Source of the DNA: an uncultured delta proteobacterium
Lineage (GTDB): Bacteria; Desulfobacterota; Binatia; UBA9968
DNA: 64,000 nt
NCBI GenBank assembly: GCA_963804165.1
Contig: CAWDPO010000008.1
Span: 61,067-125,066 of the forward strand
Direction: 5' to 3'
In this document: piece by piece, positions 2,109-47,960 of the stretch
Position numbering within the stretch: position 1 is the first letter of the stretch
How the letters are laid out: each line of letters begins with the position of its first letter
Position numbers and translations under genes: made by a program
Notes under the pieces: model-generated
Seen by the model: the letters and a program-made list of their open reading frames with translations, nothing else
Told to the model about the DNA's origin: nothing
Databases searched by the model: none

Positions 2109-2136
2109 TTAGACGTTGCTGGCAGTTGTTTGTAAC
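2109..2136 (-). promoter_or_regulatory. candidate ECF-type promoter upstream of the mini-lipoprotein gene
   Basis: The minus strand reads GTTACA-N16-GTCTAA. It shares GTTA..CGTCTAA and near-identical spacing with the motif upstream of the ECF sigma gene at 4020-4048. Confidence 0.3.
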
Positions 2137-2527
2137 GGGCGAAAAAACTGAAAATGCTCAGCGAGTCCAAAACACGTCACCGGCCTGGGCCGCGAGCCAT
2201 TTTCGCTAAAATCCGCGGCTGCTGCGAACCGATTGAAAACTTTTCAGAAGACGCTTCTCGCTGCAGACGGCGCGTAGGCCTAATAATCAGCGCAGGGTGC
2301 TACGAGTTCTTGTGGACGTGACTGTGCGTGCTGACTCGATCCCGCAATGGGTCGGCCGACCCGGTGATGATCACATCGAGTTCACGATGCGTGTCACTCA
2401 ACAAGGAAAAGGCACGACATCACTCGTGTGTCGCGCAGGTGACGTTTCATCTGCGCATGGATGGTTACTGGGGCTAGATTCGCATGGGTTGCTTTAGTCG
2501 GATTCGGAAGCTTAGCACAGAATAATC

Positions 2528-2800
2528 TTAGTCTTCACGACGATCCCGCCGTTGTCTATCATAACGCTGCTTGATTCGGTCGCGCTCGTCCTGTGGTAAA
2601 CGCTGCCAGCGATTCCATTCACCGCGCAGGTGCTCTTTGTCTTGCGGGGGCAACCTCTGCCAACGCTGATAGTTTTCCCGGACTTTGTCTTTCTCCGTCG
2701 GCGTGAGATTGCGCCAATTGTCGTTTGCCGCCATGACTCGCTGAGAACTCGCGAGCAATAGCAAACCAAACATCAATGCTAGGAAATTTCGCCTTTTCAT
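2528..2800 (-). CDS. secreted DUF3106-like protein (repeated RWQRLP..E motifs), third gene of the ECF operon
   Basis: Signal peptide MKRRNFLALMFGLLLLASSQRVMA. Repeats YQRWQRLPPQDKE and WNRWQRLPQDERD. Sits 30 bp downstream of the anti-sigma gene. Confidence 0.7.
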   Translation of the reverse strand: MKRRNFLALMFGLLLLASSQRVMAANDNWRNLTPTEKDKVRENYQRWQRLPPQDKEHLRGEWNRWQRLPQDERDRIKQRYDRQRRDRRED

Positions 2801-2830
2801 ATTACTGTCGATCTAACCGAGAATTAAAGC

Positions 2831-3391
2831 CTAGGCGACTGCATGTTCCAGCCGCACTCGACTCGTCTGGGTATTCGTCGAATCGGTGTCGAGGTCGTCC
2901 TGCTTCTCAAGTGTGCCGAGGGATTCGAGCAAGTCCATCGACTCGAAGAATTGCAACTGGTTTTCATCGGCCAAAATTTCTTGTGGTATTCGTTCTGATG
3001 TCCGATGCACGAACGAATTTAAGTTGCCTTTTCCGAATAACAAACCGACGACGAGAATCGCCACTGCAACCGTGCCGAACGCCGGCACCATCCAGACTTG
3101 CCTTGGCGCGAACAGCGCGCGCCACCAGTGTTTGCGCGCTTCTTGTTGGGCCAACTTAGCGACTGTTTCCCGATAGTACTCATCCCAGAAAGACGGCGGC
3201 ATCTGAGCCGATTTCGCTATTTGCGGCAATAATCGCCGCAAGTCTTCGACAAAGCCTTGACAAGGGACACATTCCGCGAGGTGCTGATTCACTCGGCGCC
3301 GTTCGCTATCGCCTGTCTCGCCGTAGTAGTAAAGCACGAGATCTTCTTCGAAGTGCTTGCATGCGCTTTGGAGTGGTTTTCGATATGTCAT
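2831..3391 (-). CDS. anti-sigma factor (zf-HC2 type, single TM)
   Basis: HLAECVPCQGFVEDL zinc-finger motif, central TM segment (VPAFGTVAVAILVVGLLF), and an 11-bp gap to the sigma gene. Confidence 0.75.
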   Translation of the reverse strand: MTYRKPLQSACKHFEEDLVLYYYGETGDSERRRVNQHLAECVPCQGFVEDLRRLLPQIAKSAQMPPSFWDEYYRETVAKLAQQEARKHWWRALFAPRQVWMVPAFGTVAVAILVVGLLFGKGNLNSFVHRTSERIPQEILADENQLQFFESMDLLESLGTLEKQDDLDTDSTNTQTSRVRLEHAVA

Positions 3392-3402
3392 GATTCTTTC
3401 CC

Positions 3403-3978
3403 CTAAACAAATTCCAGGAGGCTTTGGCGCAGCGCCGCTACGGCCCGATGTAAATAAACTCGAACTGTGCCTTCTGTCGTTTTCATGACCTTGGCAATAT
3501 CCGCTATCGATAATCCCTGATGGTTTCTTAATAAGAAAGCGGTGCGCTGTTTATTCGGCATCGCTTCCAGAGTTTGATCGGCGCGCCGTTTTGCCTCGCC
3601 CGCCATCGCCGCTTGCTCGGGCGCGAATGTTGAATCGGCTAATCGCTTCTGATCGCTCGGCTCCTCACTCATACCATCGAGAGACTCCCAGGTCACGCGA
3701 TTGTGACGGCGCGCATGATCCAGGCAGAGGTTCACCACGATACGGTAAAACCACGTGTAAAAGCTCGACCTGCCATCAAACTGTTTGATGTTAGCAAACG
3801 CCCGCAAAAACGCGTCTTGCGATAGATCCTTTGCCATCTCTGGATCCCGCGTGAAATTAAAGGCGATATGAAAAGCTTTTTGCATATACCTTCGCACAAG
3901 GATCTCGAAGTAGTGCCCCTGGCCTTGCTGGCACATGGACGCCAACTCTTCGTCTCCGAGTTCTTGGGGGTCAACCAT
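3403..3978 (-). CDS. RNA polymerase sigma-70 family, ECF subfamily
   Basis: Region 2 (FYTWFYRIVVNLCLDHARR) and region 4 HTH (LSIADIAKVMKTTEGTVRVYLHRA). 191 aa. Confidence 0.9.
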   Translation of the reverse strand: MVDPQELGDEELASMCQQGQGHYFEILVRRYMQKAFHIAFNFTRDPEMAKDLSQDAFLRAFANIKQFDGRSSFYTWFYRIVVNLCLDHARRHNRVTWESLDGMSEEPSDQKRLADSTFAPEQAAMAGEAKRRADQTLEAMPNKQRTAFLLRNHQGLSIADIAKVMKTTEGTVRVYLHRAVAALRQSLLEFV

Positions 3979-4019
3979 TTGCGTTACGCGCCGCGAAGTT
4001 TCCTACCCGCTACAATCCT

Positions 4020-4048
4020 TTAGACGCCAGAATACGCCAAAGGTTAAC
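4020..4048 (-). promoter_or_regulatory. candidate autoregulated ECF promoter
   Basis: The minus strand reads GTTAACCTT-tggcgtattctggc-GTCTAA. There are 18 nt between AAC and TCTAA, as in sigma-E type GGAACTT-N16-TCTAA promoters. It lies ~40 nt upstream of the sigma ATG. Confidence 0.4.
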
Positions 4049-4095
4049 AGCGCCGAGCGCTTCAACTGGATTGAGATAAGCTGCTAAAACTATGG

Positions 4096-4140
4096 AAAAA
4101 ATTCGTGTGATGGCGGCCAGCCCGATGGAGCCTGGCCGCC
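4096..4140 (-). terminator. possible terminator after the 4156-6012 minus-strand operon
   Basis: Perfect 9-bp GC-rich stem GGCGGCCAG / CTGGCCGCC (4112-4120 and 4132-4140). A T6 run on the minus strand follows, but 10 nt away from the stem, which is atypical. Confidence 0.35.
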
Positions 4141-4155
4141 CAACTTGGGAGTTCG

Positions 4156-4611
4156 CTATTGCCCGGTGGCGAGGGCAATAACGTTTTCGATTATGTCAAG
4201 AATATGGTTGGTGCGCCGGTCGATGAGAATAACGTCTCTTTCAAGGACTACCCGTTCCCAATATTCGGGGAGCCGCGGCAGCCTGCGATCCAGGTCAGCC
4301 GGCAGGGGCTCGAGCCGCTTTTGTAATCCGGGCGGAAGCTGGCCGTTCTTGTCCAACTGCTTCTGTAACCCCGGAGGCAGCTTTCCGCCGCGTTTGGCCA
4401 ACCCAGGCGGCAGACCTTTGGCTTTACTCTTTTTCCCCTGGCGATAGTAATCTTCTATGGCTCGGCGCTCCTCCGGAAGAAAATGAGACGGCCGATTGAC
4501 GTCCAATGCCAGCGCCGAACCCCTGGTCCAGGGAATCATGGCGACAGAAAGAGAAAACGCTAGGAATAATCGTCTTTGGTAATTCACGGTAATCCGCCTC
4601 CGGTAATTCAC
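4156..4611 (-). CDS. secreted protein with LPPGL(A/Q)K repeats (CigR/RcnB-like flavour)
   Basis: N-terminal hydrophobic signal. Three repeats: GLPPGLAKRGG, KLPPGLQKQL and QLPPGLQKRL. The C-terminal part resembles RcnB-like domains. Confidence 0.55.
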   Translation of the reverse strand: MNYRRRITVNYQRRLFLAFSLSVAMIPWTRGSALALDVNRPSHFLPEERRAIEDYYRQGKKSKAKGLPPGLAKRGGKLPPGLQKQLDKNGQLPPGLQKRLEPLPADLDRRLPRLPEYWERVVLERDVILIDRRTNHILDIIENVIALATGQ

Positions 4612-4619
4612 CTATCGAC

Positions 4620-5534
4620 CTATTTGCCGTGGCCCTTGCCATTCGCCATGCCGTTGCCATTGCCGCCACCGGCGGAAACGATTCCTCCATTCGAACCAGC
4701 GCCGCTGCCGGAACCGGTCACAATGCCGCTTCGGTTGAGGCCGTAGGCGTTGCCGTTCCCCTTGCCCGAAGCCGTAACGATCCCGTCGCCGGAGCCTTTA
4801 CCACTGGAAACGCCGTGGTTCGAGCTACCGTGCGATTTTCCGCTACCCGAAACGATGCCGCTTTCCGTTTTTTTGCCGCTCGCCGCGGTCACTCCACCCT
4901 TACTAGACGACGGATTTGTGGTGCTCGCCAAATTGTGGTTTGCGCTCTTCATTCCCGCGATCACCGGCCCGAGCTTGTATCCTAGTTTCTGAGCGATCTG
5001 TCCCCAGCCCATGTTCTGACTGCGCATGGTGAGGATGCCTTGTAAATTGGTTGTCGTCGTCGTTGCGGTGGCGCCTGTGCCGGTCGTCTGTGTGATCGAT
5101 CCACCGGTGAGGGCAGCCTGCAACTGTTCCGGTGTCGGCTGGGTGATTCCTAATGTACTCAGTTGCTGCTTTGCCAGCGCCAACGAAATATAGACGTTGC
5201 CGAAACCCATGTGACCAGTAGGCGGAGCGATCACGGTCGTATTGGTCGTGGTCACTGGCAAACCGCCCGGTGTGCTACTCGGAGTCGTACTTGTCGACGT
5301 CAGCGTTATCGGCGTACCATTCCTGAGACCCGTGACGACTGCGGGTGCGTCGGAGCCGAGAAATGAATTAAAATCGCTGCTGATCTTGTTGATAACATTC
5401 GTTTGCCCCTGGTTTGCCGTTGCGTTGTTCATCGTGGTCACTTGGCTGTTCAAATCCGAAGCGGTCTGGGCCAGGGCCAAAACTGGCGCTGCGACCGCCA
5501 GGCTCACGGTTAAAATCGCTGCTGAAAGCTTCAT
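4620..5534 (-). CDS. secreted Thr/Ser/Gly-rich low-complexity protein
   Basis: AGGAGG RBS. Signal peptide MKLSAAILTVSLAVAAPVLALAQT. Conserved-looking core MGWGQIAQKLGYKLG. C-terminal GSG/GNG/SSNHG repeats. Confidence 0.65.
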   Translation of the reverse strand: MKLSAAILTVSLAVAAPVLALAQTASDLNSQVTTMNNATANQGQTNVINKISSDFNSFLGSDAPAVVTGLRNGTPITLTSTSTTPSSTPGGLPVTTTNTTVIAPPTGHMGFGNVYISLALAKQQLSTLGITQPTPEQLQAALTGGSITQTTGTGATATTTTTNLQGILTMRSQNMGWGQIAQKLGYKLGPVIAGMKSANHNLASTTNPSSSKGGVTAASGKKTESGIVSGSGKSHGSSNHGVSSGKGSGDGIVTASGKGNGNAYGLNRSGIVTGSGSGAGSNGGIVSAGGGNGNGMANGKGHGK

Positions 5535-5556
5535 ACTTTTCCTCCTCGGTTTCTGC

Positions 5557-6012
5557 TTAGCTGATTCCTAACGCCCTTTCAGTTTGAATGATAATCTCTG
5601 TCGCGGTCGCACGATCTTTGAAGAAAAAGCCTTGCTTTGCCACCGTGCGAATACGCGTGGTTTTATTACTGACCATCTCCAGCTCGATCTCGATATCACG
5701 GTCGTTGGACACCGCCTTGATTGCTTTGCCTTGATCGATCTTAGAGGTCGCTTCGACTTTGATGCCCATCCGGTCGAGCGCAGTCCGCGTGGCGTTTTCG
5801 ACCTGCGGCAGCGGGGCCGTAAATGTCTTATACGCAATGCCATCCAGCGTGTACGCGACCGATGTGCCTGTGGTGACTCCTGCGCCGACGCCAAGTAGAG
5901 TTAAGCCTACGCCAGCGGCGCAACCCTGGAGCGTCAAAAGAATAGCTGCGAGAGAAATAACTTGGGGGATTCGACTGTTTTTGTTTGCCATATGGCGATT
6001 GACCATAGGCAA
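5557..6012 (-). CDS. DUF3568-like lipoprotein
   Basis: Lipobox LTLQGC after a hydrophobic stretch. The overall sequence resembles the DUF3568 family. Start codon is uncertain (M1 or M8). Confidence 0.55.
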   Translation of the reverse strand: MPMVNRHMANKNSRIPQVISLAAILLTLQGCAAGVGLTLLGVGAGVTTGTSVAYTLDGIAYKTFTAPLPQVENATRTALDRMGIKVEATSKIDQGKAIKAVSNDRDIEIELEMVSNKTTRIRTVAKQGFFFKDRATATEIIIQTERALGIS

Positions 6013-6172
6013 TTAACGAGCCAGAGCGGTCGTAACGATATCTAGGGAACGGCTTGGAATTACGTTGACTGCGAGGGCGGTTGTGAGCCTGGACGCACAG
6101 ACAAAAATGTTTACGGTACCGGAAATAATTACTGGCCGAAGTTCGCCCGGTAACGATTCCTTGGGGAGGTTT

Positions 6173-6826
6173 TCAGTGGCCGCCGATGCCGGTGATTTTG
6201 ATGCTGCCGTGCTTGGATTTGTATTTGCGGTTGAGGGCAATGATGACGCCGGTCAGCCCCTCTATCACGTACGCATTGCTTGCGGGCCCGGCATCGTAGG
6301 CAGCAGCACCGATGCGTTGAATAATCTCCATAACACGCAGCTTCGCGGTCGCATCGTCACCGCATACCAGGACATCGCCGAGCGGCGCATCGACGTCGCC
6401 TAAATCGACGGCGGAGATGTTGTGCAGCGCGCCCACGACCGGTGCTTCGCCCTCGAGAATATGCTGCGCTTCCTGCAATGCCGACCCCGCCGGCGGAACA
6501 AACGGCTTCACCTTGTTGAGCGGCACCACAGTATCGATAACGATCTTGCCCGCGAGCTGTCCTTTGAGGTCGGAAACCATTTGCGCGTGCCCTTCGTAAG
6601 GGACGGCAATGACGACGAAGTCGGCGCCCTTTACCGCTTCCTGGTTGGTCTTGCCGACTAATTCACCCGCGCGTAATTTAGGCTTCAACGTCTCGACTGC
6701 GTTTTTGGCTTTCTCCGGGTCGCGCGAACCGATAATAATTTTTACTCCCGGCGCGCCGAGGCGAAGCGCCAAGGCGCTGCCCAAATTGCCCGTACCGCCG
6801 ACGATTGCCACACTGAATTGATCCAT
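6173..6826 (-). CDS. npdG: NADPH-dependent F420 reductase
   Basis: N-terminal Rossmann motif VAIVGGTGNLGSALALRLG..IIIGSRDPEKA. Last gene of the F420 biosynthesis operon. Confidence 0.8.
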   Translation of the reverse strand: MDQFSVAIVGGTGNLGSALALRLGAPGVKIIIGSRDPEKAKNAVETLKPKLRAGELVGKTNQEAVKGADFVVIAVPYEGHAQMVSDLKGQLAGKIVIDTVVPLNKVKPFVPPAGSALQEAQHILEGEAPVVGALHNISAVDLGDVDAPLGDVLVCGDDATAKLRVMEIIQRIGAAAYDAGPASNAYVIEGLTGVIIALNRKYKSKHGSIKITGIGGH

Positions 6827-6840
6827 AGTTTCACCAAGAA

Positions 6841-7593
6841 CTAGCGAAAGAGATCCTCGGCCCTCGGCCGAAGAAGCTCCTGCGCCGATCCATGCTCCTT
6901 TTTTTCCGCCTCAAAGCCGCGCACGAGTACTACGGGTACGTCGTCGCGCTTGCCCATCACTAATTCCGCCGCGGCGGCAATTTCATCCGCCACGGCGGCC
7001 ACTGCTGCCTTGAGTTGGTAGCCATGGCGATCATGCGTCCCTCGTTCATCTTTGATTGCCTTCATCCCGGCGATGCCGATCGCTACATCGACGGTGCCCA
7101 AGCGCCACGGGCGACCAAAGCTATCACTGATAATAATAGCCGGGCTCTTGCCAGAGCGTTCGTGAATTTCGCCGAGCACTTCGCGCGCCGAGCGATCCGG
7201 ATCCTCCGGCAACAGGGTAACTTGCTTCAAGCCGATGTTCGATTGATCGACGCCCGCGTTGGCGCAAATAAACCCGTGCTGGGTTTCAACGATCAATGCT
7301 CGGCCGCCGGTGCGAATCACGCCGCGGCTCTCGCCGAGAATCACCTCGACCAGTTCCGCTTCTTTGTCGAGTTCGCGCGCCAATTCTTTAGCGCGCTCCG
7401 AGGGTTGAACGTCTTTTAAGTCAATTATGCGCCCTTCAGCCTTGGAGACGATTTTCTGCGCAATGACAAGCACATCGTTGTCGTTGATCTCAATGCCCTG
7501 ACGTGAACAAGCATCAACAATTAAATAACCTAAAGAATCGCCGGGGCGAATCTCCCCGATGTTTTCAAGGCCAAGCAACTCGAGCCTCTTCAT
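6841..7593 (-). CDS. cofE: coenzyme F420-0:L-glutamate ligase
   Basis: CofE signature GFICANAGVDQSN. 250 aa. Overlaps cofC by 4 nt. Confidence 0.85.
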   Translation of the reverse strand: MKRLELLGLENIGEIRPGDSLGYLIVDACSRQGIEINDNDVLVIAQKIVSKAEGRIIDLKDVQPSERAKELARELDKEAELVEVILGESRGVIRTGGRALIVETQHGFICANAGVDQSNIGLKQVTLLPEDPDRSAREVLGEIHERSGKSPAIIISDSFGRPWRLGTVDVAIGIAGMKAIKDERGTHDRHGYQLKAAVAAVADEIAAAAELVMGKRDDVPVVLVRGFEAEKKEHGSAQELLRPRAEDLFR

Positions 7594-14847: not shown

Positions 14848-15928
14848 ATGACGAATAAAAAACAATTATTCTTGTCCCCGTGGTTTTACTGTTCGCTGGC
14901 ATCGCTTTTGCCCAATCGAAGGAGGAAAAACTGCGGGTCGCGACTCGGCTGATTCGACCTTTCGTCTATGAACAACAGGGGCAGCTCACCGGCTTCAGCG
15001 TCGAGCTCTGGCAGGAAATTGCCAAGCAATTGAACGCGCAGTCCGAATTTATCGTCAAGCCGACGGTCAAAGAATTGCTCGATGCAGTCAAGTCGAAGAA
15101 CGTGGCTCTCGGCATCGCGGCGATTTCGATCACAGCCGATCGGGAAGTGGAGTTGGACTTTTCCCAGCCGATGTTCGATGCCGGGTTGCAAATCCTGACT
15201 CCCGTTCAAGGGAGCCGTGGCGCCTTTGTCGAAGCGATCATGGCTAATTTATTGTCAACCACCGTCCTGCTCTATGTTTTGGGAGTAGCCCTTATTCTTC
15301 TCATGATGGCGCATTTGGTGTGGTTTTTTGAGCAGCGCAATTCCACCGGCATGCTGACTCATCGAGAGTATTTCCCGGGCATCTGCGAGGTGTGCTGGTG
15401 GGCCGCTTCGACGTGGCTACCCAGGCCGATCAAATGCCGCGCGCGGCGATGGCGCGGATCGTCGCCGTCATCTGGATGTTCATGAGCGTCATCTTCATCG
15501 CGTACTTTACTGCGGCGGTCACTTCTTCTCTGACTGTGCAACAATTGCGCGCTAATATTAACGGCCCCGAGGATCTTCCCGGCAAACGCGTCGCCAGCAT
15601 AAAGGGCAGCACATCCGTGGAGTATTTGCGGCAGCATAGCTTTGAGCCAGTAGAACTTACCAGGATGGAAGAAGCGTATCAGGCGATTCAGGACGGCCAC
15701 GTCGACGCCATAGTCTACGACGCGTCGGTGTTGCTCTTTTACGCGGCGCACGAGGGCAAGGGCAAAGTTCAAACGGTTGGGGCGATCTTTCGTAATGAAA
15801 ATTACGGCATCGTTTTTCCGTCCAACAGCCCGTACCGAAAACCGGTCAACGAAGCGTTACTGAAGCTCAAAGAAAACGGCGTTTACGATCAGCTGTATAC
15901 GAAATGGTTCCGCAGCAACGGCTCATAA
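14848..15928 (+). pseudogene. periplasmic binding protein / ion-channel fusion (prokaryotic iGluR or GluR0-like), interrupted by two 1-nt deletions
   Basis: The ATG at 14848 gives MTNKKQLFLSP, then a frame break in a C4 run joins to VVLLFAGIAFAQ, forming a signal peptide. SBP_bac_3 lobe 1 follows, then TM1, a pore loop, TM2 (ARIVAVIWMFMSVIFIAYFTAAVTSSLTV) and lobe 2. The second break is near 15406 inside the pore helix (ORFs 14880-15485 and 15392-15928). Confidence 0.7.
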
Positions 15929-23255: not shown

Positions 23256-23528
23256 GCGGCGAAATTCTATCGGCAGCGCCCGTCCTTTTCAAACCGTCAT
23301 TTGACTAGCCTCTGTCGCGCTCGCATCGGATAACGGGGCGAATTGCTAATTCGAATCTTGCCAAGTGACTCGCTCGAACACCCATGGTGCTCTAGCACAC
23401 ATCGCGACATTTTTGTCCAAGGATTCCCGACGTTGGCCAAAATTCCCCGTTTTGCCAAACCTATTACCAAAAACGTTGTTCTTCTTTCTACTAAGTAGTT
23501 GAAATTGCGAAATTCCTAATTTCAGGCC

Positions 23529-23544
23529 TGGCATGTTTTTGGCT
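23529..23544 (+). promoter_or_regulatory. candidate sigma-54 (-24/-12) promoter
   Basis: TGGCATGTTTTTGGCT versus the consensus TGGCACG-N4-TTGCW. GG and GC are separated by exactly 12 nt. It lies ~80 bp upstream of the coiled-coil gene ATG. Confidence 0.3.
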
Positions 23545-23621
23545 ACAGCGACAGCGTTGGTAAAACATTTCCTAAGACTTGGCAAGCAAAGCGGAAAAAT
23601 TGTAAACAAAATACGATTCCT

Positions 23622-24974
23622 ATGGATGCGCCCAAAATTCCCATAAACGACCCGTCTATCCTCTTACTCAATGAAATCGAGATCCTGCTCGCGCAATCGC
23701 GCCTGCTCGAGCTCTACCTAAAACAAACGCAAGCGTCGGCTGCCTACGAGACGGCTCGCGCCTATCATCGCCATCAGAGTGAGCTGGCCGAGCTCCGTGC
23801 TGCCCTTTCCGAGAAAGAGAAAATTGTCGTAGCGAAGGAAAACACGGTCGGCGCAAGAGAACGGGATCTTCAAGAAAGAGTCCAGAATCTGGAAACCGAC
23901 TTGAGCGAAGCTCAACGTCGGCTCCAATACCGCGACGTCGAATTCCAACGCGTCGAGTCTGAAGCGGCAGACCTGCGCGGGCTCATCGACCAACTGGAAC
24001 TCTCGAAGGCACAAGCGCAAACCACCGCGCGAGAATCCGCGATGGCTCGCCAAGAACTCACGGCAGAACTGGCGGTCCTGCGTGAGCGTCTCGAAGAAAT
24101 CCAGGCAAACTTCCAAAATCAACAGCTGGCGTCTCGGCAACTTCAAGAGGATCTACAAACCCAGATCGCGCAACTCCAGGATCAACTTCGTGAAAAAGTG
24201 ACTTGGTCGCGCACCGCCGACGGCGAGCTACAACAAGCCAAGCGGGAGATCGCCGAACTGCACGAGCGGGTCGCGGAACTTCAAACGAGCCGCCAAGAAG
24301 CCCAATCGAGCGCGGCGCGCGAGCTGGCAGACTCGCGCGCACACTTTGAAATGCAGCTCAACGGCCTCCAGACCGCGCTTGCTGAGCGCGAGCATGTCCT
24401 CGAAGAAACCCACCATGCGATGATCGAACTCGAGCACGGCCTCAGAACCGAGATCGTCATGCTGCATAGCCAACTCGAGCAGAAGCAAGAACTGATCGGT
24501 TTTCGGGACGAGGAACTGCGCGGCAATCAATCGCAATTCGCTGCGCTCCAGCAACGGGTCGCAGAGCTCGAAGCGGCCGAACAAGCAGCGCGGGTCAGTG
24601 CCGAGCAAATCGAAGACACACGCCGCTCCTATGAGGACCGGGTCGTTGCCCTGCAGCATGAAGTCACAGCCCGAGAGCGAGCGCTGACGGAACGTCAGGA
24701 AGCCGTGAGCGCGGTGGAGCTGGCGTTGCACGGCAAAATCCAGTCTCTCCAGCAGGAGCTGGCCCTCAGCCACAGCTTGAACGAAGAGCGCGAAAACGCG
24801 CTGCGAAGTTCCCGCACCGAGAATGAAGCCTTGCGCGAACGGATCGCCGAACAAGAATCTGCCGCTTCCGCGGATCTGCTGGCGCGCCAGCGCGTTGAAG
24901 AGCACATGTCGCGGTTTGGAAACCGAAATATCCGGCTTGCACGCAACATTGGCGCAGAAGGAATACGCGCTTGA
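23622..24974 (+). CDS. giant coiled-coil protein, N-terminal ORF fragment (continues in 24823-27633 after a +1 indel near 24905-24918)
   Basis: Continuous Q/E/L/R/A heptad-like sequence. Coil-like reading stops at ..LLARQRVEEH in this frame and resumes as LETEISGLHATLAQKEYALDH in the next frame. Confidence 0.75.
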   Translation: MDAPKIPINDPSILLLNEIEILLAQSRLLELYLKQTQASAAYETARAYHRHQSELAELRAALSEKEKIVVAKENTVGARERDLQERVQNLETDLSEAQRRLQYRDVEFQRVESEAADLRGLIDQLELSKAQAQTTARESAMARQELTAELAVLRERLEEIQANFQNQQLASRQLQEDLQTQIAQLQDQLREKVTWSRTADGELQQAKREIAELHERVAELQTSRQEAQSSAARELADSRAHFEMQLNGLQTALAEREHVLEETHHAMIELEHGLRTEIVMLHSQLEQKQELIGFRDEELRGNQSQFAALQQRVAELEAAEQAARVSAEQIEDTRRSYEDRVVALQHEVTARERALTERQEAVSAVELALHGKIQSLQQELALSHSLNEERENALRSSRTENEALRERIAEQESAASADLLARQRVEEHMSRFGNRNIRLARNIGAEGIRA

Positions 24975-27633
24975 CCACCAGGGAAAAGCCATCACCTCCC
25001 TCGAACAGCGGTTGACCACGGACATTGAACAGCTTCATCGCCAACTCGAACAGCAGCAAAATTTGTCGGACGCCGGCGCCGCAGAGGTCACGCGCTTGCG
25101 CTCGGAGATCGCTGCGGTCGAGGAACAAAAGACCCGGCTGGCGGATTCCCGCGACGAGCTCGAACGGAGCCGACAGCAAGAGGCGGTGACACGTCAGGAA
25201 CTAGAAGCGCGCCTCCAGGTCAAGGATGACGAGCTGCGGGCAGTTCAGGCAAACGCCCAAGAACTTATGCAAGCCGCGCTGAGGGACCAAGAAGCTCACT
25301 TTAAATCACTCGCACAGCAAACGAGCGGCGATATCGTCGGACTGCAAAATCAGTTGCAAGAGCAAGGGCTCGCGGCGCAACAACACCAAACTGAGCTCGT
25401 GCAATTACATGCCGAGATCGCCGGCTTGCGGCAACAGATTGCGCAAACCGAACATTCCCGCGATACCCTCGAACAGGCCTTGCAACAGGCCGCCGCCCAG
25501 CGCGAGGAGTTAGCCGGGCGCTTACAAACTAGAGAGAATGAATTTAGCGCTACCCAGGTGCACGCGAGTGAACACTTGGCGGCTCTTGAGGAGCAGCAAA
25601 CCCGCTTTAATTCCATCGAAGAAGAGCGATGCAAAGAAATCAGCGAGCTGCGTGGCCAATTGGACCAGCAAAGGCTTCACGCCGATTCACTGCACGAAGA
25701 ACTTGCCCAACTGCGCTCGGAGAACGCTGGGATCCAGGAACAAAGGGTTCAAGCCGAGCAATTCCGCCAAGAGCTCGAACAAAACCGGCAGGAAACCTCA
25801 GCGCTGCGCGCGGAACTCGAAACGCGGCTACTGGCAAAAGACGCCGAACTTCAGGCGGCCCAATCCGACGCAACTGCACTAAAGAACCATTTCGATACCA
25901 AGCTCAACGAACTGCAGCTCCACCTCGCTGAAAAACAGCTGCTCGTGGAGGGCAGAGCTGCGGAGTCCGAGAACCTCAAAGGCCAGCTGGATCGCTTATC
26001 GGAACAATTGACGCAGCGAGATTCCGCAAGCGCCGAATTCCAAGCGCAGTTTCAAAAAGAAACCGAATTGGCGCGCGCCGAGCATCAGACGGCAATCGCC
26101 GTGTTGCGCAATGAATTTCAGATCAAACAGAGCAACCAGGACAATGAGCTCGCTCAGGAAAGGCAGCGAGTCGCCGAACTTACTCTTCAGATTGGTGAAT
26201 TCGAGCAGCAGAAGGCCGCTACTGAAACGCAGCTCCAAGAGCGCCAGCGAGAGCACGAAGCCGCCGTGGTCGAAGCCGCGGCATTGCGATCGCGCTTGGA
26301 TGAGCTGGAAACACGTCACCAGATGGAACTCTCCGCCGCAGAGCGGGAGCAAAATCAAGCTCGAAACCAGCTCGAAACAGAACTGTCCGCCGCGCGCGCC
26401 GAACTGCAACAGAACGCGAGGGTGGCGACTCAACATCAAGCGGCAATTGCCGAATTGCGGAATGAATATCAGATCAAACAGAGCAACCAGGACAATGAGC
26501 TCGCCCAGGAGAGGCAGCGAGTCGCCGAACTTACTCTTCAGATTAGTGAATTCGAGCAGCAGAAGGCCGCTATTGAAACGCAGCTCCAAGAGCGTCAGCG
26601 GGAGCATGAAGCCGCCGTGGTCGAAGCCGCGGCATTCCGATCGCGCTTGGATGAGCTGGAAACGCGGCGCGAGACAGAACTCTCCGCCGCAGAGCGGGAG
26701 CAAAATCAAGCTCGAAGCCAGCTCGAAACAGAACTGTCTGCCGCGCGAGCCGAACTACAACAGAAGGCATGGTCGTCGGCCCAGCATCAGGCGGCCTTGG
26801 AAAACCTTGCTCTCGCCCACAAGGACCAAATCCAAAAACTCGAAGGTAGACTTACCGACCAGCAGAACAGCATCAAAGATCGCAATCTCGAGGTGGAGCG
26901 ATCTCAGTCGCAAGCGCGATTACTGGAGCAACGTATCGAAGGGCTCAGTACAGAGCTGCGACAAGCCGAACTAACCGCGATCAACCGAGCCGTGCAAATC
27001 AAGGAAGAATATGGAGTCCGCATCGCGGACTTGGAAAAGCAAGTCGCGCAAAAGACCATCGAGGTGCAGAAGCGCGGCCTGTCAAGGACGGAAGTGGAGC
27101 AAACACTTCGACTCGAGATCGACCGGCTGACTCGCGAAGGTCAAGAAAGACACCAAATTTTGCAGGACCGTAATGAAGAGCTCGTCCGAGTCAAAGTCGA
27201 GATGGATACGTTTCAGGAGCAATGCCGCAATTTAGAATCGGCGGCAAGCCAGAACGAAGCGTCTCTTGGCACCGAAATGGAGAAAATGCGCACGGAATTT
27301 CAAGCGCAGCTCGCGCTATTGCAAGCGGAACTAAGTCAAAGAGACTGGGCTCTAGAGGAGCAGCGCGCGGCGAAGAGCACCATAGAGCTGCAATTCCGTC
27401 AGGATCTCGAAACTTTAAACCAACAGTTGGCGGAAACCGAAGTGCGCGCCAAAGAAAATCAGGATAAGTTTGTGATGGGTGACGATAAGTTAACCCCCGA
27501 GCAACAGGACCGTTATCAAAAATACAGAAACGTAATGGACGCTGTCGCTGTTGGAAGCGACGGATCATTTCCGGCGTCGGAAAATCGCCGTTGGCGCGGT
27601 CGTTTCGGTTGGAAGAGGCGTTGGAAATCATAG
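24823..27633 (+). CDS. giant coiled-coil protein, C-terminal ORF fragment (combined product ~1,330 aa)
   Basis: 936-aa ORF of uninterrupted coiled-coil-type sequence. No TM, signal peptide or NTPase motifs. Basic-aromatic tail RRWRGRFGWKRRWKS. Confidence 0.8.
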   Translation: MKPCANGSPNKNLPLPRICWRASALKSTCRGLETEISGLHATLAQKEYALDHQGKAITSLEQRLTTDIEQLHRQLEQQQNLSDAGAAEVTRLRSEIAAVEEQKTRLADSRDELERSRQQEAVTRQELEARLQVKDDELRAVQANAQELMQAALRDQEAHFKSLAQQTSGDIVGLQNQLQEQGLAAQQHQTELVQLHAEIAGLRQQIAQTEHSRDTLEQALQQAAAQREELAGRLQTRENEFSATQVHASEHLAALEEQQTRFNSIEEERCKEISELRGQLDQQRLHADSLHEELAQLRSENAGIQEQRVQAEQFRQELEQNRQETSALRAELETRLLAKDAELQAAQSDATALKNHFDTKLNELQLHLAEKQLLVEGRAAESENLKGQLDRLSEQLTQRDSASAEFQAQFQKETELARAEHQTAIAVLRNEFQIKQSNQDNELAQERQRVAELTLQIGEFEQQKAATETQLQERQREHEAAVVEAAALRSRLDELETRHQMELSAAEREQNQARNQLETELSAARAELQQNARVATQHQAAIAELRNEYQIKQSNQDNELAQERQRVAELTLQISEFEQQKAAIETQLQERQREHEAAVVEAAAFRSRLDELETRRETELSAAEREQNQARSQLETELSAARAELQQKAWSSAQHQAALENLALAHKDQIQKLEGRLTDQQNSIKDRNLEVERSQSQARLLEQRIEGLSTELRQAELTAINRAVQIKEEYGVRIADLEKQVAQKTIEVQKRGLSRTEVEQTLRLEIDRLTREGQERHQILQDRNEELVRVKVEMDTFQEQCRNLESAASQNEASLGTEMEKMRTEFQAQLALLQAELSQRDWALEEQRAAKSTIELQFRQDLETLNQQLAETEVRAKENQDKFVMGDDKLTPEQQDRYQKYRNVMDAVAVGSDGSFPASENRRWRGRFGWKRRWKS
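26084..26785 (+). repeat. two tandem 351-bp (117-codon) units inside the coiled-coil gene
   Basis: aatgaatttcagatcaaacagagcaaccaggacaatgagctcgc starts at 26110 and again at 26461. By eye the units are >90% identical over ~290 nt, and a diverged third start follows at 26786. Confidence 0.9.
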
Positions 27634-27746
27634 CGCACCAACCGGCATCATCGCGCGTGATTCTTTGAACGAACTCAATTTAAGAAACCAAGAGGACGTT
27701 GAGTAACCATTTGGCGAAATTATAGCTCAGCGGTCGAAGGACGGTC

Positions 27747-28473
27747 ATGTTACAAACAGAACGTGTATCCACTGGAATCGTCGGGCTCGACCCGCTGCTT
27801 GAGGGAGGTTTTCCCCAGGGCCGGTCGGTCCTCATTACCGGGGAGCCCGGACACGGGAAAATCAATTTTCGCCCTGCAATTTCTTGGTGAAGGGCTCAAT
27901 CGCAATGAGAAGGGTATTTTCGTGACCGCGGACGAAAGCCCGATGGACATACTCGAGCAAGCAGCTTCAATTGGCTGGGACTTTGAGCGGCATATCGAGA
28001 CCAAAGATCTGTCGATTTTGAACGCCGGCACGTATCTCAGCTCGCTGCCGGGTGCGGGCAAAGAACGTCATATCGACGTGCAAAAAGCGGTCAGCGACCT
28101 GGCGAGCTTCGTCAAACAACTCGGGGCCAAGAGACTAGTGCTCGACCCCGCGGGGCCGTTTGTCCTATTGCGCGATAGCGCGGCACGCATCCAAGACCAG
28201 GTCCGCTTGTTAATAAAGTTGATGCGATCTTCGATGCCGACAACCAACGTCCTTACCTCCTATGCCGTTCCGAGGACCGGCGAACGATCCATGCATGGCA
28301 TGGAGGAGTATCTCGTAGCCGGTGCGATCGTCTTAGAGATGGTCTGGAAAAACGGCGAGCTCGCTCGCAGCCTGATCGTCGAGAAGATGCGTTGCACGGA
28401 CGTGAAGCCGACTCAACTCGAATTCGATATCGTAAAGGGGCAAGGCATCGTGCTTCATCCCCCGCTTCGCTAA
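27747..28473 (+). pseudogene. single-domain KaiC/RecA-like ATPase A (COG0467-type), frame broken inside Walker A
   Basis: The ATG at 27747 (GAAGGA RBS) gives [35 protein letters not shown]. An extra nt at 27852 then shifts to [11 protein letters not shown] (ORF 27763-28473). Walker B is RLVLDP. Confidence 0.8.
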
Positions 28474-28490
28474 AATTTAAAGTTTAGGGA

Positions 28491-29283
28491 ATGGATCTCC
28501 AGCGCATTTCAACCGGCATCGCGGGCCTCGACGCTTTGCTTCACGGTGGCTATCTAAGAGGGCGCACCTACCTGGTGACCGGCGACACCGGCACGGGAAA
28601 AACCATCGCTTGTTTGCAGTTCCTGCTGAACGGCCTCTAAGCGCGGGGAAAAGGCGGTCTACGTCACCGTCGACGAACGCCCGGGTGAGATTTTAGACTC
28701 GGCGGCGTCATTTTCCTGGGATCTCCAGCCGTACATTCAAGAAAAGAGCTTGGTCATCCTGGATGCCTCGCCCTATTTTGGCGCCCGGAGCGCGAGTGCG
28801 ACGGAAAAAGGTATCGATCCGCAAAAAGTCGTCGCCGATCTTGGCAACTATGCAAGAAGGCTCAGCGCAACGCTTCTCATCATTGATCCGATAACGCCGC
28901 TCATCCTGCCGAACGACGCAACCAGCCCAAGCCAGGACCAAGCCCGCTCCCTTGTACAATTGATACAAACTCAACTAAATACGACCAATCTGTTTACCGC
29001 CCACCTGCCAAAAGTGACGGCCCAGAGCAGCGCGAACGGCATCGAGCAATATCTCACCTCCGGCGTGTTGGTTCTCAAAACCGATGAGATCGACGGCAAA
29101 TTTAAGCGCACCGTGACCATCAAGAAAATGCGCGGCACACCCGTTGAACCTGGTAACTTTCCTTTTGCGATTCTCGCAAATGACGGAATTGTCCTGACGA
29201 GTTGTCGCGCCGGAGAAGTCTCGCGGATGGATGGCCCGGCGCCGATGTTTGAATTTTTTCACCTTTCCAAAAGACAATCCTGA
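28491..29283 (+). pseudogene. single-domain KaiC/RecA-like ATPase B, frame broken just after Walker A
   Basis: The ATG at 28491 gives MDLQRISTGIAGLDALLHGGYLRGRTYLVTGDTGTGKTIACLQFLLNGL. An extra nt near 28638 then shifts to KRGEKAVYVTVDERPGEILDSAASFSWD (joins ORF 28750-29283). Walker B is LLIIDP. Confidence 0.8.
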
Positions 29284-29391
29284 CCCCGAAATTCTGAATT
29301 TGCGTTCGGCGGTCGACGCTCGACGGGATACCGAAGGCGCTCGGGCGTCGCCATGAATTATTTCGCTTTTCTCGCTGCGTTTCGGGCTTTC

Positions 29392-29419
29392 TTGACAGCC
29401 GGCGAAACGATGCTTAGAT
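29392..29419 (+). promoter_or_regulatory. sigma-70-like promoter for clpB
   Basis: TTGACA-16 nt-TTAGAT, 25 nt upstream of the clpB ATG, with a GAGGA RBS. Confidence 0.4.
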
Positions 29420-29443
29420 TTTTCCACAAATGAGGACTCCAAA

Positions 29444-32071
<2,628 letters not shown>

Positions 32072-39809: not shown

Positions 39810-41241
39810 ATGAACCGGCGCGTCGTCGTCATCGGCGGCGGCGTCGCCGGCCTTGCTGCCGCACACCGCATTGCCGAGCTTGCCAACGAAAGATCTCTCA
39901 GTGTCGAACTCACACTGCTCGAAGCCTCGCAACGGCTTGGCGGCACGATCGCCACGGAAAGAGTCGGCGATTTTCTCGTCGAAGCCGGACCGGACTCATT
40001 CATCACGGAAAAACCCTGGGCACTCCGTCTCTGCGAGCGCATCGGCCTCACATCACGACTTGTCTCAACCCAGTCCGCGTATCAAAAGATCTACATCGTC
40101 CACCGAGGAAAGCTGATCGCGCTGCCCGAAGGTTTTTTTCTCCTCGCACCGACGCGTCTTTGGCCTTTTGTCCGGACGCCGCTTTTCTCATGGTCGGGCA
40201 AACTGCGCATGGCGAGCGAACTTCTGCTTCCGCGCGGTAATATGAATGAGGATGAAACCCTCGGTTCGTTTGTCCGCCGGCGTTTCGGCAGCGAAGCTCT
40301 TGAGCGCGTCGCTCAGCCCCTGGTCGGCGGCATCTATGCTTCCGACCCGGACCAACTGAGTCTCGGCGCGACCATGCCGCGGTTCAAAGAGATGGAATCA
40401 AAGAAGCGCAGCGTCATCTGGGCAATGTGGTCCGAGCAAAGAATTCGCGCCCGCAACCGTGAAGCCGGCAGCGGCGCACGCTGGAGCTTGTTCGTCACGC
40501 TCGCGGGTGGAATGCAGGAATTGGTCGATACCCTCGCCAAGCGTCTTCCCGAACCGACAATCCGTCTCAATTCTCGCGTCACCGGTTTGCTTTGCGACGA
40601 AACCAATAAAACTTGGCGGATCACCATTGGCAACGACGAAACGATGCTTGCCGATGCTGTGATCCTCGCGACGCCCGCGTTTCAAACCGGCGCCATCACT
40701 TCTGCAATTACGAAGGACGCAGCCATCGAACTCAAGAATATCTCTTATGCTTCTACAGCGACCGTGAGTCTCGGCGTACCGTCGCGACGACTTCACCCAG
40801 GCACCGGATAGCTTCGGTTTCGTCGTGCCGGCGATAGAACATCGTAAGGTCATGGCTTGCACCTTCAGCAGTCTGAAATACCCTGGCCGAGCGCCGGAAG
40901 GTCATGTTTTGCTGCGCGCTTTCGTCGGCGGCGCGTTGCAACCGGAATTGTTTGGCGACGACGACGCGGCCATGGGGAATAACGTCCGTGAGGAACTTGC
41001 AAATTTACTTGGCGTCCGCGCCCAACCTATCTTCGCACGCATTAGGCGCCATCCGAATTCAATGCCACAATACCACGTCGGCCATGAAGCTCGCATCAAA
41101 CGAATCGAAGCTTCTTTGCGCCAATTTCCCACGCTCGCCCTCGCCGGCAGCGCCTATCACGGCGTCGGCATTTCCGATTGTGTTCGAAGCGGCGAAGAAG
41201 CCGCGGCAAAACTCATCGCCCAGATCGATTCCGCAACGTAA
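39810..41241 (+). pseudogene. hemY: protoporphyrinogen/coproporphyrinogen III oxidase (HemY/CgoX type), single +1 frame break at ~40776
   Basis: FAD motif VVVIGGGVAGLAAA. ORF 39810-40811 ends artificially. Skipping one g at 40776 gives VSLGYRRDDFTQAPDSFGFVVPAIEHRKVMACTFSS, joining ORF 40825-41241. Confidence 0.85.
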
Positions 41242-41393
41242 ACAGCCTGGTCGGGTTCTTGGCTCGACGCTTTATTCCGAATCACACCACGACGCCCAAT
41301 TACGGTTCAACTCCTTCGGCAATGCGCAGGATAAACGCCGGGAGAAATCTTTTCTTCTTGACGCCTGTATCGAACCCAGATTATGAATCGGTC

Positions 41394-42235
41394 ATGCTCA
41401 TCATCGACTCCCAAGTCCACATTTGGGCGCCCGAGACGGCGGAAAAACCTTATGCCAGAGAAGATGCGTCGCCGCCGCACCGACCTGTGCCGCTCGGCCA
41501 CGAGGAACTCTTGCGTGAGATGGACGGCGCCGGAGTCGCGCGTTGCGTGCTCGTACCGCCGACCTGGGAAGCCGATCGCAACGATACCTCGTTGGAGGCC
41601 GCAAGATTGCACCCCGATCGCTTTCGCGTCATGGGTCGACTCGCGCTGACAAAAGCCGGAAAGCCGCGCGCTCATGGCGACGTGGAAAAATCAGCCGTAT
41701 ATGTTGGGCATCAGGATGGTTTTTAATGCGGGGAAAACGCGACAATGGCTGGACGACGGCACAGTCGGACTGGTTCTGGGACGCCGCCGAACGCTACGAC
41801 GTGCCGGTGATGGCATTCGCGCCAAGTGCCGTGCCCAAGCTCGGTGAGATCGCGGAACGCCACCCGGGACTGCGCATGATCATCGATCACATGGGACTTA
41901 GCTCGGCGCTGCGCGGCAACTCACTCGAACCTTCCGTGGCCAACACCATCAAGCTCGCGCGCTTGGCCAACGTTGCAGTGAAAGTGTCCGCCTTGCCGTG
42001 CTACGTGGATGAACCTTATCCATTTCCGACTCTGCATCCGCTGGTGCGCAGCGTCGTCGACGCTTTCGGCCCGCGACGCTGCTTCTGGGGCACGGATTTG
42101 TCTCATCTCCCCTGTCCGTACAAGCAAGTGGTGACACTGTTCACCGAGGAAATGAAATCGCTTTCGGCGCCCGAATTAGAATGGATCATGGGCCGCGGCA
42201 TAGCGGAATGGCTCGGCTGGCCGCTGCCGGAATAA
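41394..42235 (+). pseudogene. amidohydrolase family 2, two +1 frame breaks (~41655 and 41764)
   Basis: MLIIDSQVHIW start. The middle section KPESRALMATWKNQPYMLGIRMVFN is in a second frame. The C-terminal part DWFWDAAERYDVPVM...FWGTDLSH is in the third frame. Confidence 0.75.
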
Positions 42236-46219: not shown

Positions 46220-47591
46220 ATGGCTACGCCGCCACCCGTCACGGATACAATGGTTCGCTTCGTGATCGAAACCGACTTTGCCGTGATATCGGATCAAACC
46301 CGTGCCAACGCGAAAATGCATATCCTCGACACGCTCGGCGTAGCGCTCGCCGGTGTCGAGCAACCGGCGGCAGCGATCGCGCTCGATTACTGCCGTCGCC
46401 TCGGTTCTTCCAATGAAGCATCCGATCTGGGGCACGCGATCAAATGCATCGGTGTCGACGGCGGCATTCGCCAATGGTCTTTTTGCCCACGCGCTCGACT
46501 ATGACGACTGGGAGCCGTTCATCCACGTCGGCCACCCGTCCAGCATGATTATCGGCGCGGCGTTGCCGCTGGCCGAAAGTACCGGGGCGACTGGTAAGGA
46601 ACTGCTAAAGGCTTACGTGCTGGCCATCGAAGTCATCTGCAAGCTCGCCGCCAACGCGCCGAACATGCAAGACCGCGGCTTCCACAGCACGCCGGTCTTT
46701 GGCAGCCTTGGCGCCGCCGTCGCTTGCTCGAGTCTTGTTGAAGTTGGATGCGGCAAAATCAAAGGCCGCTCTGGGTGTTGCTGCATCGGCCGCCGGCGGT
46801 ATCCACCGCCAGCAAGGATCCATGGTGAAGCCGTTTCACGCCGGCAACGCCGCGCGCAACGGCGCCGAAGCAGCGCTGCTCTCAGCGGCAGGTTTCACCG
46901 CCGACGCGGCGATCCTCGAAGCGCCGCGCGGATTTTGCGACACCTTCTTCGGTCCGGGCACCTGCAATTACGAAAAAATGATCGAGAACATCGGCAAGCC
47001 ATACTTTTTGGAATCGCCCGGCTTGGGCCTCAAATGGCACCCATGCAGCGCGCCGCAGTTTCTCGCCGCCGACGCGGCACTCTACTTGAAGCGCGCGCAC
47101 AAGATCGATTTCGCCAATGTTGCGAATATCGAAGTCAGCATTCCTCCCCTGCGTTACCAGCGCCACTACGCTGCCGAAGTCAAAACCGGACTGCGCGGCA
47201 AATTTGCCATCAACTACGTCGTCGCGCATGTGCATCTTCGACGGCAAACTGGAACTGGCGACGTTTACGGACGAGAAAGTCAATCGGCCGCAAGTCCAAG
47301 AAGCGTTGCAAAAAGTTAAAGTAATCTGCGACGAAACCATTCCCGAGCCCGGGCCCTACTGCCCGGTCACCGTCGAACTAAAAGACGGCACGCGCTTGAG
47401 CCACACGGCGAAAATCGCCAAAGGCGATCCGCGCAATCCCATGACGGAAGAACGAAGTCGTGGAAAAGTTTCGCGGCAATGCCAAGTTGGTGATTTCGGA
47501 GAAACAAGCGGAAGAGTTGATTGCGACCGTGCGCAACTTGGAAGCCGTCGACAATGTGAAAGACCTCGTCAGTCTGCTCGCGCCCGCATAG
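46220..47591 (+). pseudogene. MmgE/PrpD family protein (2-methylcitrate dehydratase-like), four +1 frame breaks
   Basis: AAGGAG RBS plus MATPPPVTDTMVRFV. Colinear PrpD-like blocks run through frames 2, 0, 1, 2, 0 (..FANGLFAHALDYDDW.., ..AALGVAASAAGGIHRQQGSMVKPFHAGNAARNG.., ..DGKLELATFTDEK.., ..VVEKFRGNAKLV..LLAPA*). Confidence 0.75.
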
Positions 47592-47593
47592 AA

Positions 47594-47960
47594 CGCATAT
47601 TGTTTCAGATGCACTTATTGTGTCATTCCGAGGCGAAGCCGAGGAACCTCTGTCGAAAGGTAAGATCCTCCGAGTCCGCGGGCCTGCGTGAAAACACCGT
47701 TCATGGTTCCCTTCGTTATTGAGCTCCGGGCAGGCTGGCTCACCACGAACGGTGCGGTTTCGTTCAAAATAAAGTCTTTAACCGCTCGCCCTGAGACTCG
47801 TCGAAGGGTTCCGATAGAGTTTTCGCCCAGTCTGCCGTTGATGAAAGAGTTTCTGCCGGATGGGTTGAGTGCAGCGAAACCCATCGTTGCACCACTCCAA
47901 TACTCCACCACTCCATTTCTCTTCCCCGGATTGGACAACTTTTCCCGACTGCGATAAGTC
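47594..47960. repeat. non-coding patch composed of several short repeat motifs
   Basis: Contains gtcattccgaggcgaagccgaggaacc, ttaaccgctcgccctgagactcgtcgaaggg, cgaaacccatcg and cactccaatactccaccactcc. Related motifs occur at 54085-54164, 56679-56750 and 61440-61520. Confidence 0.5.

Follow-up and report, generated by a model that had tools for sequence, protein, structure and literature searches.

An apparent sigma-54-type operon for a coiled-coil rod protein and KaiC-like ATPases in an uncultured soil-bacterial lineage

Closest described systems and the KaiC-like ATPases

The circadian protein KaiC consists of two domains, CI and CII, in approximately 500 residues, and its phosphorylation sites are located in CII. 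The psp operon of Escherichia coli is driven by a sigma-54 promoter together with an upstream activator site and a site for integration host factor (IHF), and its effector is a helical coiled-coil protein. Non-cyanobacterial KaiC homologues, including those of Pseudomonas, have been linked to stress resistance by a mechanism that is unknown, and KaiC homologues are virtually always found beside histidine kinases or response regulators (bioRxiv 10.1101/2022.01.26.477890). In the archaellum, FlaH and FlaI are bound by the scaffold FlaX, which assembles into a ring of 30 nm (PMC5019145). Here, a stretch of 64,000 nucleotides from an uncultured delta proteobacterium (hereafter the window; contig CAWDPO010000008.1, positions 61,067 to 125,066) was analyzed, in which three genes on the + strand form one operon-like set: a gene for a coiled-coil rod protein (hereafter the coil gene, 23622..27633) and the genes of two single-domain KaiC-like ATPases, KaiC1 (27747..28473) and KaiC2 (28491..29283). 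We read this locus, at a probability of about 0.55, as a conserved sigma-54-type operon of a rod and KaiC ATPases, that is, an inducible rod or scaffold that would be switched by a KaiC-type ATPase.

KaiC1 is a protein of 241 aa when an extra A at 27851 is removed, and its paralogue KaiC2 is one of 263 aa without an extra T at 28638; each has one CI-type domain and no CII. A preliminary description of this DNA had called both proteins KaiC-like from the motifs GEPGTGKS and LVLDP in one and GDTGTGKT and LIIDP in the other. The assignment was borne out by PF06745 (E of about 1e-58): after bridging of the frames, KaiC1 scored 196.9 bits (E 4e-58) and KaiC2 196.5 bits (E 5e-58) against a cut-off of 26.6, covering positions 1-229 of the 231 in the profile. 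The reading of the motifs, on the other hand, depends on bridging two frame breaks, neither of which had been stated. The best PDB match of both ATPases was KaiC CI (121-131 bits, compared with 40-46 bits for CII; 121 and 40 bits in the case of KaiC1), and the archaeal single-domain proteins PH0186, PH0284, and SSO2452 were further close relatives. KaiC1 contains GEPGTGKS, VTADES, LVLDP, and KMRCT, and KaiC2 contains GDTGTGKT, VTVDER, LIIDP, and KMRGT. The Walker A motif, the VT(A/V)DE acidic pair with its catalytic glutamate, the Walker B motif, and the KMR(C/G)T arginine, which corresponds to the arginine finger, align with those of KaiC CI and are kept in 21 KaiC2 orthologues, and both ATPases look catalytically competent. 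What sets them apart from KaiC CI and the archaeal single-domain proteins is a coiled-coil partner and an apparent sigma-54 drive. A split KaiC with one CI and one CII protein was considered and rejected, because both are CI-like.

Scores against the NCBIfam model circ_KaiC were 97-112 bits, far from its cut-off of 546, and no kaiA, kaiB, or SasA/CikA-type kinase gene occurs nearby, the neighbors in the loci being hisC, glyoxalase, CNNM, recD2, clpB, and MFS genes. Unlike the Pseudomonas-type KaiC homologues, the two proteins are single-domain and adjoin no kinase or regulator. The nearest functional precedent is the pair ArlH (FlaH) and ArlX (FlaX), in which a single-domain KaiC-like ATPase is likewise combined with a coiled-coil scaffold; in the present case, however, the host is a bacterium, and the rod has no transmembrane anchor and reaches lengths of up to about 1600 aa. 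The ArlH model NF052589 gave 49-51 bits (cut-off 215), and no ArlI- or ArlJ-like genes were present in the loci. The locus resembles PspF/PspA in the layout of its sigma-54 promoter and in its helical coiled-coil product, but no pspF is adjacent, and the ATPase is of the RecA-fold KaiC-like type and not AAA+. None of 15 coil family members scanned matched PspA/IM30 (PF04012) at E ≤ 0.05.

More than 1000 homologues of KaiC1 were found, and the best 120 were 78-95% identical and nearly all 238-245 aa long. The ratio of nonsynonymous to synonymous substitution rates (Ka/Ks) relative to the related locus L001 was 0.04 for KaiC1 and 0.10 for KaiC2, compared with 0.04 for clpB and 0.11 for hisC. KaiC1 is very strongly conserved, as constrained as clpB, and KaiC2 is a usually present but dispensable paralogue. 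After a variable linker, the C-terminus of KaiC2 carries the conserved peptide (P)xFEYF(D/E)xxK, which reads APMFEFFHLSKRQS at 29239-29280 of the window, and KaiC1 has no FEYF-type extension. This xFEYF(D/E) peptide looks like a docking motif.

Operon, promoter, and coil family

The related loci compared here numbered 115, of which 35 were obtained via genome and protein look-ups and 80 via metagenome contigs. They have the gene order recD2, CNNM, glyoxalase, hisC, coil, KaiC1, [KaiC2], clpB, and MFS in common. KaiC1 directly follows the coil gene in every related locus with downstream sequence (115 loci, no exception), and the recurrent adjacency that the preliminary description had proposed to look for was thus found, within one lineage. 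Its treatment of the two ATPases as a pair did not hold throughout, as KaiC2 was present in 74 of 87 judgeable loci and missing from the other 13. Local departures from the common order also occurred. Locus L027 lacks CNNM, and clpB is absent from the position downstream of KaiC2 in L007, being adjacent in nearly all other loci. Locus L022 (positions 1100-6870), which belongs to a metagenome-assembled genome (MAG) recorded as Syntrophobacter sp. SbD2, has neither the common upstream gene order nor the 5' portion of its coil gene; a tyrosine-recombinase-like open reading frame (ORF) and a sequence resembling the translated end of a tRNA gene stand there instead. This points either to insertion of a mobile element or to a contig that is chimeric. 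The coil-KaiC1 pair persists through such rearrangements, with the evidence confined to one lineage. The source MAGs carry the label Candidatus Binatia or "delta proteobacterium". Four loci with identical synteny and proteins 70-90% identical (L012, L017, L020, and L015) bear the titles Chloroflexota, Verrucomicrobiia, Limnocylindrales, or Thermodesulfobacteriota; they are probably mis-binned or mis-labelled Binatia-type contigs.

The spacers in the window are 113 bp between the coil gene and KaiC1 and 17 bp between KaiC1 and KaiC2, exactly as first described. Among the relatives, the coil-KaiC1 spacer ranges from 22 to 135 nt; its sole conserved element is a GAAGGA ribosome-binding site, and no conserved internal promoter precedes KaiC1. 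Conservation of the ribosome-binding site alone in this spacer points to co-transcription. On these grounds and on their shared strand, the coil gene, KaiC1, and KaiC2 appear to form an operon, as had been supposed from the first, and this apparent operon is conserved within one uncultured, Binatia-type lineage of soil bacteria.

A sigma-54-type (−24/−12) promoter, TGGCATGTTTTTGGCT, with the GG-N10-GC core, is located at 23529..23544 on the + strand, 77 nt 5' of the start codon of the coil gene. The preliminary description began at this very position, 23529, and did not mention it. The site is unique within the window. The test pattern for the motif was TGGCAC-N5-TTGCW-like, with the invariant GG and GC 10 nt apart, upstream of the gene. 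Among the first 35 loci, the motif was present once per locus, with GG and GC invariant, in every locus that holds the region, and the surrounding spacer could not be aligned; a fixed pattern found it again in most of the region-holding loci among the later 80. Upstream of the promoter, a putative activator site for a bacterial enhancer-binding protein, GACATTTTTGTCCA, was found at 23406..23440 on the + strand, which includes the palindrome GACA-N4-TGTC and, 21 nt downstream, a second, TTGTCCA-like copy that reads TTGGCCA. The form in relatives is GACAwTTTTGTCCA, in most cases followed 21 nt later by another TTGTCCA. In 20 of the 30 promoter-bearing loci, the first copy (ACA-N3-5-TGTC) is found at −122 ± 2 nt relative to the −24 element; 19 loci have it at −122/−123 and others at −101 to −143, and its flanks are not conserved. 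A repeat at a fixed upstream distance is the usual layout of an enhancer-binding-protein site, and the arrangement suggests that an enhancer-binding activator would bind here. Between this site and the promoter, the − strand at 23492..23504 reads, as its reverse complement, TTTCAACTACTTA, near to WATCAR-N4-TTR, which we tentatively take to be an IHF-like site by comparison with that consensus; the pattern yTAAsTAnnTGAwwTT shows partial conservation there in an alignment of 19 loci. The coil operon is therefore apparently under sigma-54 control. The sigma-54-type promoter, the upstream activator site at its fixed distance, and the IHF-like site are new in this analysis.

The coil gene encodes 1336 aa after removal of one inserted base at approximately 24901-24904. 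The proposal that the ORFs 23622-24974 and 24823-27633 represent one long protein proved right, since the bridged frame contains no internal stop. Q, E, L, R, and A make up 63% of its residues. The five prolines all lie within the first 11 or the last 45 residues, which leaves a Pro-free stretch of approximately 1280 residues. No Walker A motif was found anywhere in the 1336 aa, no transmembrane segment was indicated (the most hydrophobic 19-residue window reaches 1.2), and no head, hinge, or zinc-hook motif was present in the protein, in agreement with its first characterization as a coil free of membrane segments and Walker motifs. AlphaFold2 was applied to a homologue of 316 aa. In the model, a helix at residues 11-71 (predicted local distance difference test (pLDDT) 82-94) is followed by a disordered linker of 60 residues, one continuous helix at residues 143-268, most of which has a pLDDT of 94-98, and a disordered tail; the predicted template modelling score is 0.27, and the helices adopt no globular fold. 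Composition and model together describe a headless, essentially all-helical coiled-coil rod. Long ORFs of 237-287 aa overlap the coil gene, two on the − strand (24228-25025 and 25996-26709) and one in another frame of the + strand (26111-26974). We take them for by-products of the repetitive GAG/CAG/CTG-rich codons; they are not genes. The AT skew climbs to approximately 0.3 across the coil gene.

Both ends of the protein are conserved. The N-terminal module DPSILLLNEIEILLAQSRLLELYLKQ (23649..23726, + strand) belongs to a helix of approximately 60 aa, is conserved in 19 loci and in the alignments A1 and A4, and has the family consensus MDxxxxxxDPxxLLLNEIExLLAQxRLxELxLKQ. The C-terminal helix, residues 1158-1274 (27094..27444, + strand), contains ...ILQDRNEELVRVK... 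and ...TEFQAQLALLQAELSQ.DWALEE...; it has 22-35 invariant columns in A1 and A4 and is also conserved across 87 loci. At the level of the family, this helix is approximately 120 residues long, and its invariant positions include ILQDRNDELVRVK and TEFQAQLALLQAELSQKEWALEE. A Trp/Arg-rich tail, RRWRGRFGWKRRWKS (27586..27630, + strand), follows a disordered linker. Its consensus is RRWxxGFGWKRRW(K/R)S, with W and KRRW invariant in the family alignments, including that of 87 loci, and it may bind membrane or nucleic acid. No coil motif that distinguishes loci with KaiC2 from loci without it was seen among the 87.

The length of family members ranges from 279 to approximately 1620 aa, with conserved ends and a variable center, which is almost nil in members of 279-316 aa; intact orthologues in short-read assemblies have 1063-1519 aa. 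The gene in the window contains a recent, near-perfect tandem duplication at 26083..26765 (+ strand), detected with Tandem Repeats Finder, of 351 bp (117 aa) in 1.9 copies with 92% identity. Recurring modules had been noted before, and all six of the peptides then quoted are present, at residues 241, 337, 432, 757, 524, and 729, but this duplication had escaped the inventory. Coil genes of relatives hold repeat arrays of 267, 309, and 351 nt in up to 5.8 copies. Such arrays were observed in L005, L010, L013, L016, L018, and L030, with the 5.8 copies in L016. The units of 89, 103, and 117 aa are each 5 modulo 7 and step by two heptads, and every unit would therefore carry the same heptad discontinuity. 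The Ka/Ks of the coil gene relative to L001 was 0.21, uniform along the gene. These results indicate that the center lengthens through tandem duplications of 89, 103, or 117 aa, and that giant size, by which the protein had at first been defined, is a variable, fast-evolving, non-defining trait.

When 1.84 billion representative proteins were searched with a profile of the coil family, only 224 matched at E ≤ 1e-3. In 185,579 species, each represented by one genome, 28 loci were found, all of them in MAGs, most of which bear the label Candidatus Binatia or "uncultured delta proteobacterium". Searches of Pfam, NCBIfam, and PADLOC with the coil protein returned only sub-threshold generic coil matches, the family profile had no meaningful match in PDB, and Foldseek found no match to the AlphaFold2 model of the 316-aa homologue. 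The coil family is thus undescribed. The preliminary description had found no known module to fit, and the comparisons agree with it. With SMC, Rad50, MukB, JetC, and LmuB the protein shares long coiled-coil composition and weak profile matches confined to the arm regions; it differs in having no ATPase heads, hinge, or zinc hook, and its scores are 10-40 times below the cut-offs. SMC_prok_B gave 62 bits (cut-off 567) and Rad50 24 bits (cut-off 1000), both in arm regions only, and the LmuB and JetC matches had E values of 1e-3 or weaker. An antiparallel arm with strict pairing is disfavored by the tandem duplication, which lies within one stretch of the coil. Among the PADLOC defence systems, there was a single partial P-loop match, to mad8 (28.5 bits, E 2.5e-7), and the other MADS genes were absent. 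Crescentin, FilP, and Scy are similar as long heptad-rich proteins with no enzymatic domains; here, however, no homology to them is detectable, the linkage to a KaiC-like gene is obligate, induction is apparently by sigma-54, and length variation is extreme. The similarity to such proteins was of the generic coil type only (PF00038, 18 bits against a cut-off of 40).

Downstream of the three genes, clpB (29444-32071) is regarded here as a neighbor rather than as a member of the module. It is preceded by a sigma-70-like promoter, TTGACA-17-TAGATT, at 29392..29420 on the + strand; an own promoter of this kind had been proposed for clpB, and the element is conserved, as it also precedes clpB in L003. 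No terminator-like hairpin was found on the + strand between KaiC2 and clpB (29284-29443), and transcription from the sigma-54 promoter could therefore read into clpB, beside the promoter of clpB itself.

Frame breaks in the three genes

All three genes require deletion of one base to be read, at approximately 24901-24904, 27851, and 28638. A single indel in the coil gene had earlier been placed near 24905-24918. That it is a one-base insertion was correct, but alignment with the related locus L097 put the extra base that splits the ORF just upstream, at 24901..24904, where the window reads GAAGAGCACATG and the intact L097 reads GAAGA-AACATG; the frame switch in tblastn occurred at 24911/24916. 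The extra A of KaiC1 lies within the Walker A codons, and the unbridged DNA reads GEPGHGKI or GSPDTGKS. In KaiC2, the extra T puts GDTGTGKT (ORF 28491-28640) and LIIDP (ORF 28750-29283) in different frames. All three genes are intact in L097, the closest relative (84-88% nucleotide identity). Programmed frameshifting was rejected, because relatives including L097 have no shift at these sites.

Frame breaks are also spread over the rest of the window. A PrpD/MmgE-type gene (46353-47722) is distributed over three frames and a GluR-like SBP_bac_3/Lig_chan gene (14880-15928) over two, an Amidohydro_2 gene (40904-42235) appears split, and two MFS genes at 32.4-35.3 kb contain several breaks. The density of approximately 0.2 frameshifts per kb is like that of an indel-prone long-read assembly. 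In the flanking housekeeping genes of relatives, no frameshift was found in 142 kb from 22 short-read-style loci, compared with 20 in 94 kb from 13 long-read-style loci, the latter being those with "contig_N" names, mostly Microflora Danica (MFD) MAGs; the window has 5 in 13.5 kb. MFD MAGs derive from Nanopore sequencing (PMC12313526). Because frameshifts occur only in long-read-style relatives and throughout the window, the three genes have Ka/Ks values of 0.04-0.21, and L097 is intact, the three single-base insertions are most likely long-read assembly errors, with the genes probably intact in vivo. The preliminary description had allowed that its indels might be real and the genes dead; the question concerns three genes and not one, and the answer is probably no, given that the frameshifts look like assembly errors. 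The frame breaks seen here would then be a data-quality problem of long-read metagenome assemblies rather than biology. Elsewhere in the window, on the − strand at 2831-3978, a gene for a zf-HC2 anti-sigma factor is directly preceded by that of an ECF sigma factor (Sigma70_r2/r4), an ordinary regulatory pair. A reading of 2831-3391 and 3403-3978 as one frameshifted gene was rejected, as these are the separate anti-sigma and ECF sigma genes.

Proposed mechanism, rival readings, and implications

In the proposed mechanism, transcription from the sigma-54 promoter would require an enhancer-binding activator at the fixed upstream site and a bend in the DNA introduced by IHF, and the module would be made only upon a specific signal. 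The rod may be a parallel dimer of approximately 40-240 nm depending on the species, serving as a scaffold or tether; a parallel arrangement is favored because an antiparallel hairpin with strict pairing would not easily accommodate a duplication confined to one stretch. Its conserved ends would dock a KaiC1 hexamer, whose state of ATP hydrolysis or autophosphorylation could switch rod assembly or signalling output, and the basic aromatic tail might anchor one rod end to membrane or nucleic acid. A more specific version, which we regard as doubtful, is an ATP-switched scaffold in which a sigma-54-induced coiled-coil "ruler" or tether would be tuned by species to approximately 40-240 nm through the duplications of 89, 103, or 117 residues and would recruit CI-type KaiC hexamers at its ends.

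Several points weigh against the operon being such an inducible, ATPase-switched rod. All conservation comes from one lineage, of which we know no cultured member, with one fixed synteny. The adjacency could partly reflect inertia, and a single narrow lineage with a single synteny is weaker evidence than conservation across phyla. No gene for an enhancer-binding protein of the GAFTGA type occurs within the window. The proposed parallel geometry of the dimer, its sites of docking, and the function of the tail are inferences. As for the intactness of the genes, the inserted bases lie outside homopolymers, unlike the most frequent kind of Nanopore error, and the frameshifts within 17-39 kb cluster in 5 of 13 genes.

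The preliminary description had suggested a filament or scaffold that the ATPases remodel. A reading in this sense, by which the coil protein would assemble by itself into cytoskeletal filaments like those of crescentin, FilP, or Scy and KaiC-like hexamers would disassemble or remodel them, is unlikely. It accords with the long, heptad-rich, Pro-free sequence, with weak matches to intermediate-filament and SMC coil profiles, and with an ATPase encoded in the same operon. Signal-dependent sigma-54 control, however, is more to be expected of an inducible function than of a housekeeping cytoskeleton, it would be unusual for a filament former to vary six-fold in length and to include a member of 316 aa with a disordered linker of 60 residues, and we know of no KaiC-family protein that remodels polymers. 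Control of this kind would suit another candidate, a Psp-like effector of membrane or envelope stress, with the Trp/Arg tail on the membrane, regulation by the ATPase, and clpB perhaps co-induced by read-through. In addition to the promoter, activator site, and IHF-like site, the invariant RRW...KRRW tail, the proximity of clpB in nearly all loci, and the lack of a terminator-like site on the + strand in front of it speak for such an effector. Yet 0 of 15 family members match PspA/IM30, a pspF-like gene was not found nearby, clpB has its own promoter and is absent from L007, and membrane binding by the tail is putative, and this proposal is improbable. An action on DNA, in which RecA-fold ATPases and a headless SMC-like arm would take part in repair or chromosome organization with the basic tail bound to DNA, is very unlikely indeed. 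The ATPases do have the RecA/RadA superfamily fold, the best NCBIfam matches of the coil are the arms of SMC and Rad50, and recD2 and dinB lie within 8 kb; these arm matches, however, cover coil segments only at 62 and 24 bits (cut-offs 567 and 1000), the head, hinge, and zinc-hook motifs are absent, both ATPases are closest to KaiC CI and not to RadA or RecA, and recD2 is on the opposite strand, three genes off.

A different kind of alternative is that the three insertions are real and that the module is inactivated in this genome, as a decaying pseudogene cluster. Three consecutive genes each bear a frame-breaking insertion of one base that does not extend a homopolymer, and at 17-39 kb the housekeeping genes recD2, hisC, clpB, dinB, and hemE are intact while the accessory module and the two MFS genes are broken. 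Against decay, in-frame stops, deletions, and an excess of amino-acid changes are all absent, KaiC1 is 95% identical to its orthologues at a Ka/Ks of 0.04, and unrelated genes of the window are also shifted, at a density near that of the long-read relatives and never seen in the short-read ones. Real inactivation is accordingly rather unlikely. An intact, sigma-54-controlled operon for a rod and its KaiC-type ATPases is the reading that we prefer.

The role of many KaiC homologues outside the cyanobacterial clocks is largely open, and those that have been studied are tied to histidine kinases. If the ruler or tether version is true, it would provide the KaiC family with a partner of a structural or mechanical kind in place of the known kinase partners. 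The operon is a small, defined three-gene module that could be expressed heterologously although the host lineage is uncultured. Here, a KaiC1 constrained like ClpB is encoded, under apparent sigma-54 control, beside a coiled-coil protein of an undescribed family, and this suggests that the output partner is of another kind than those known for this family of ATPases.

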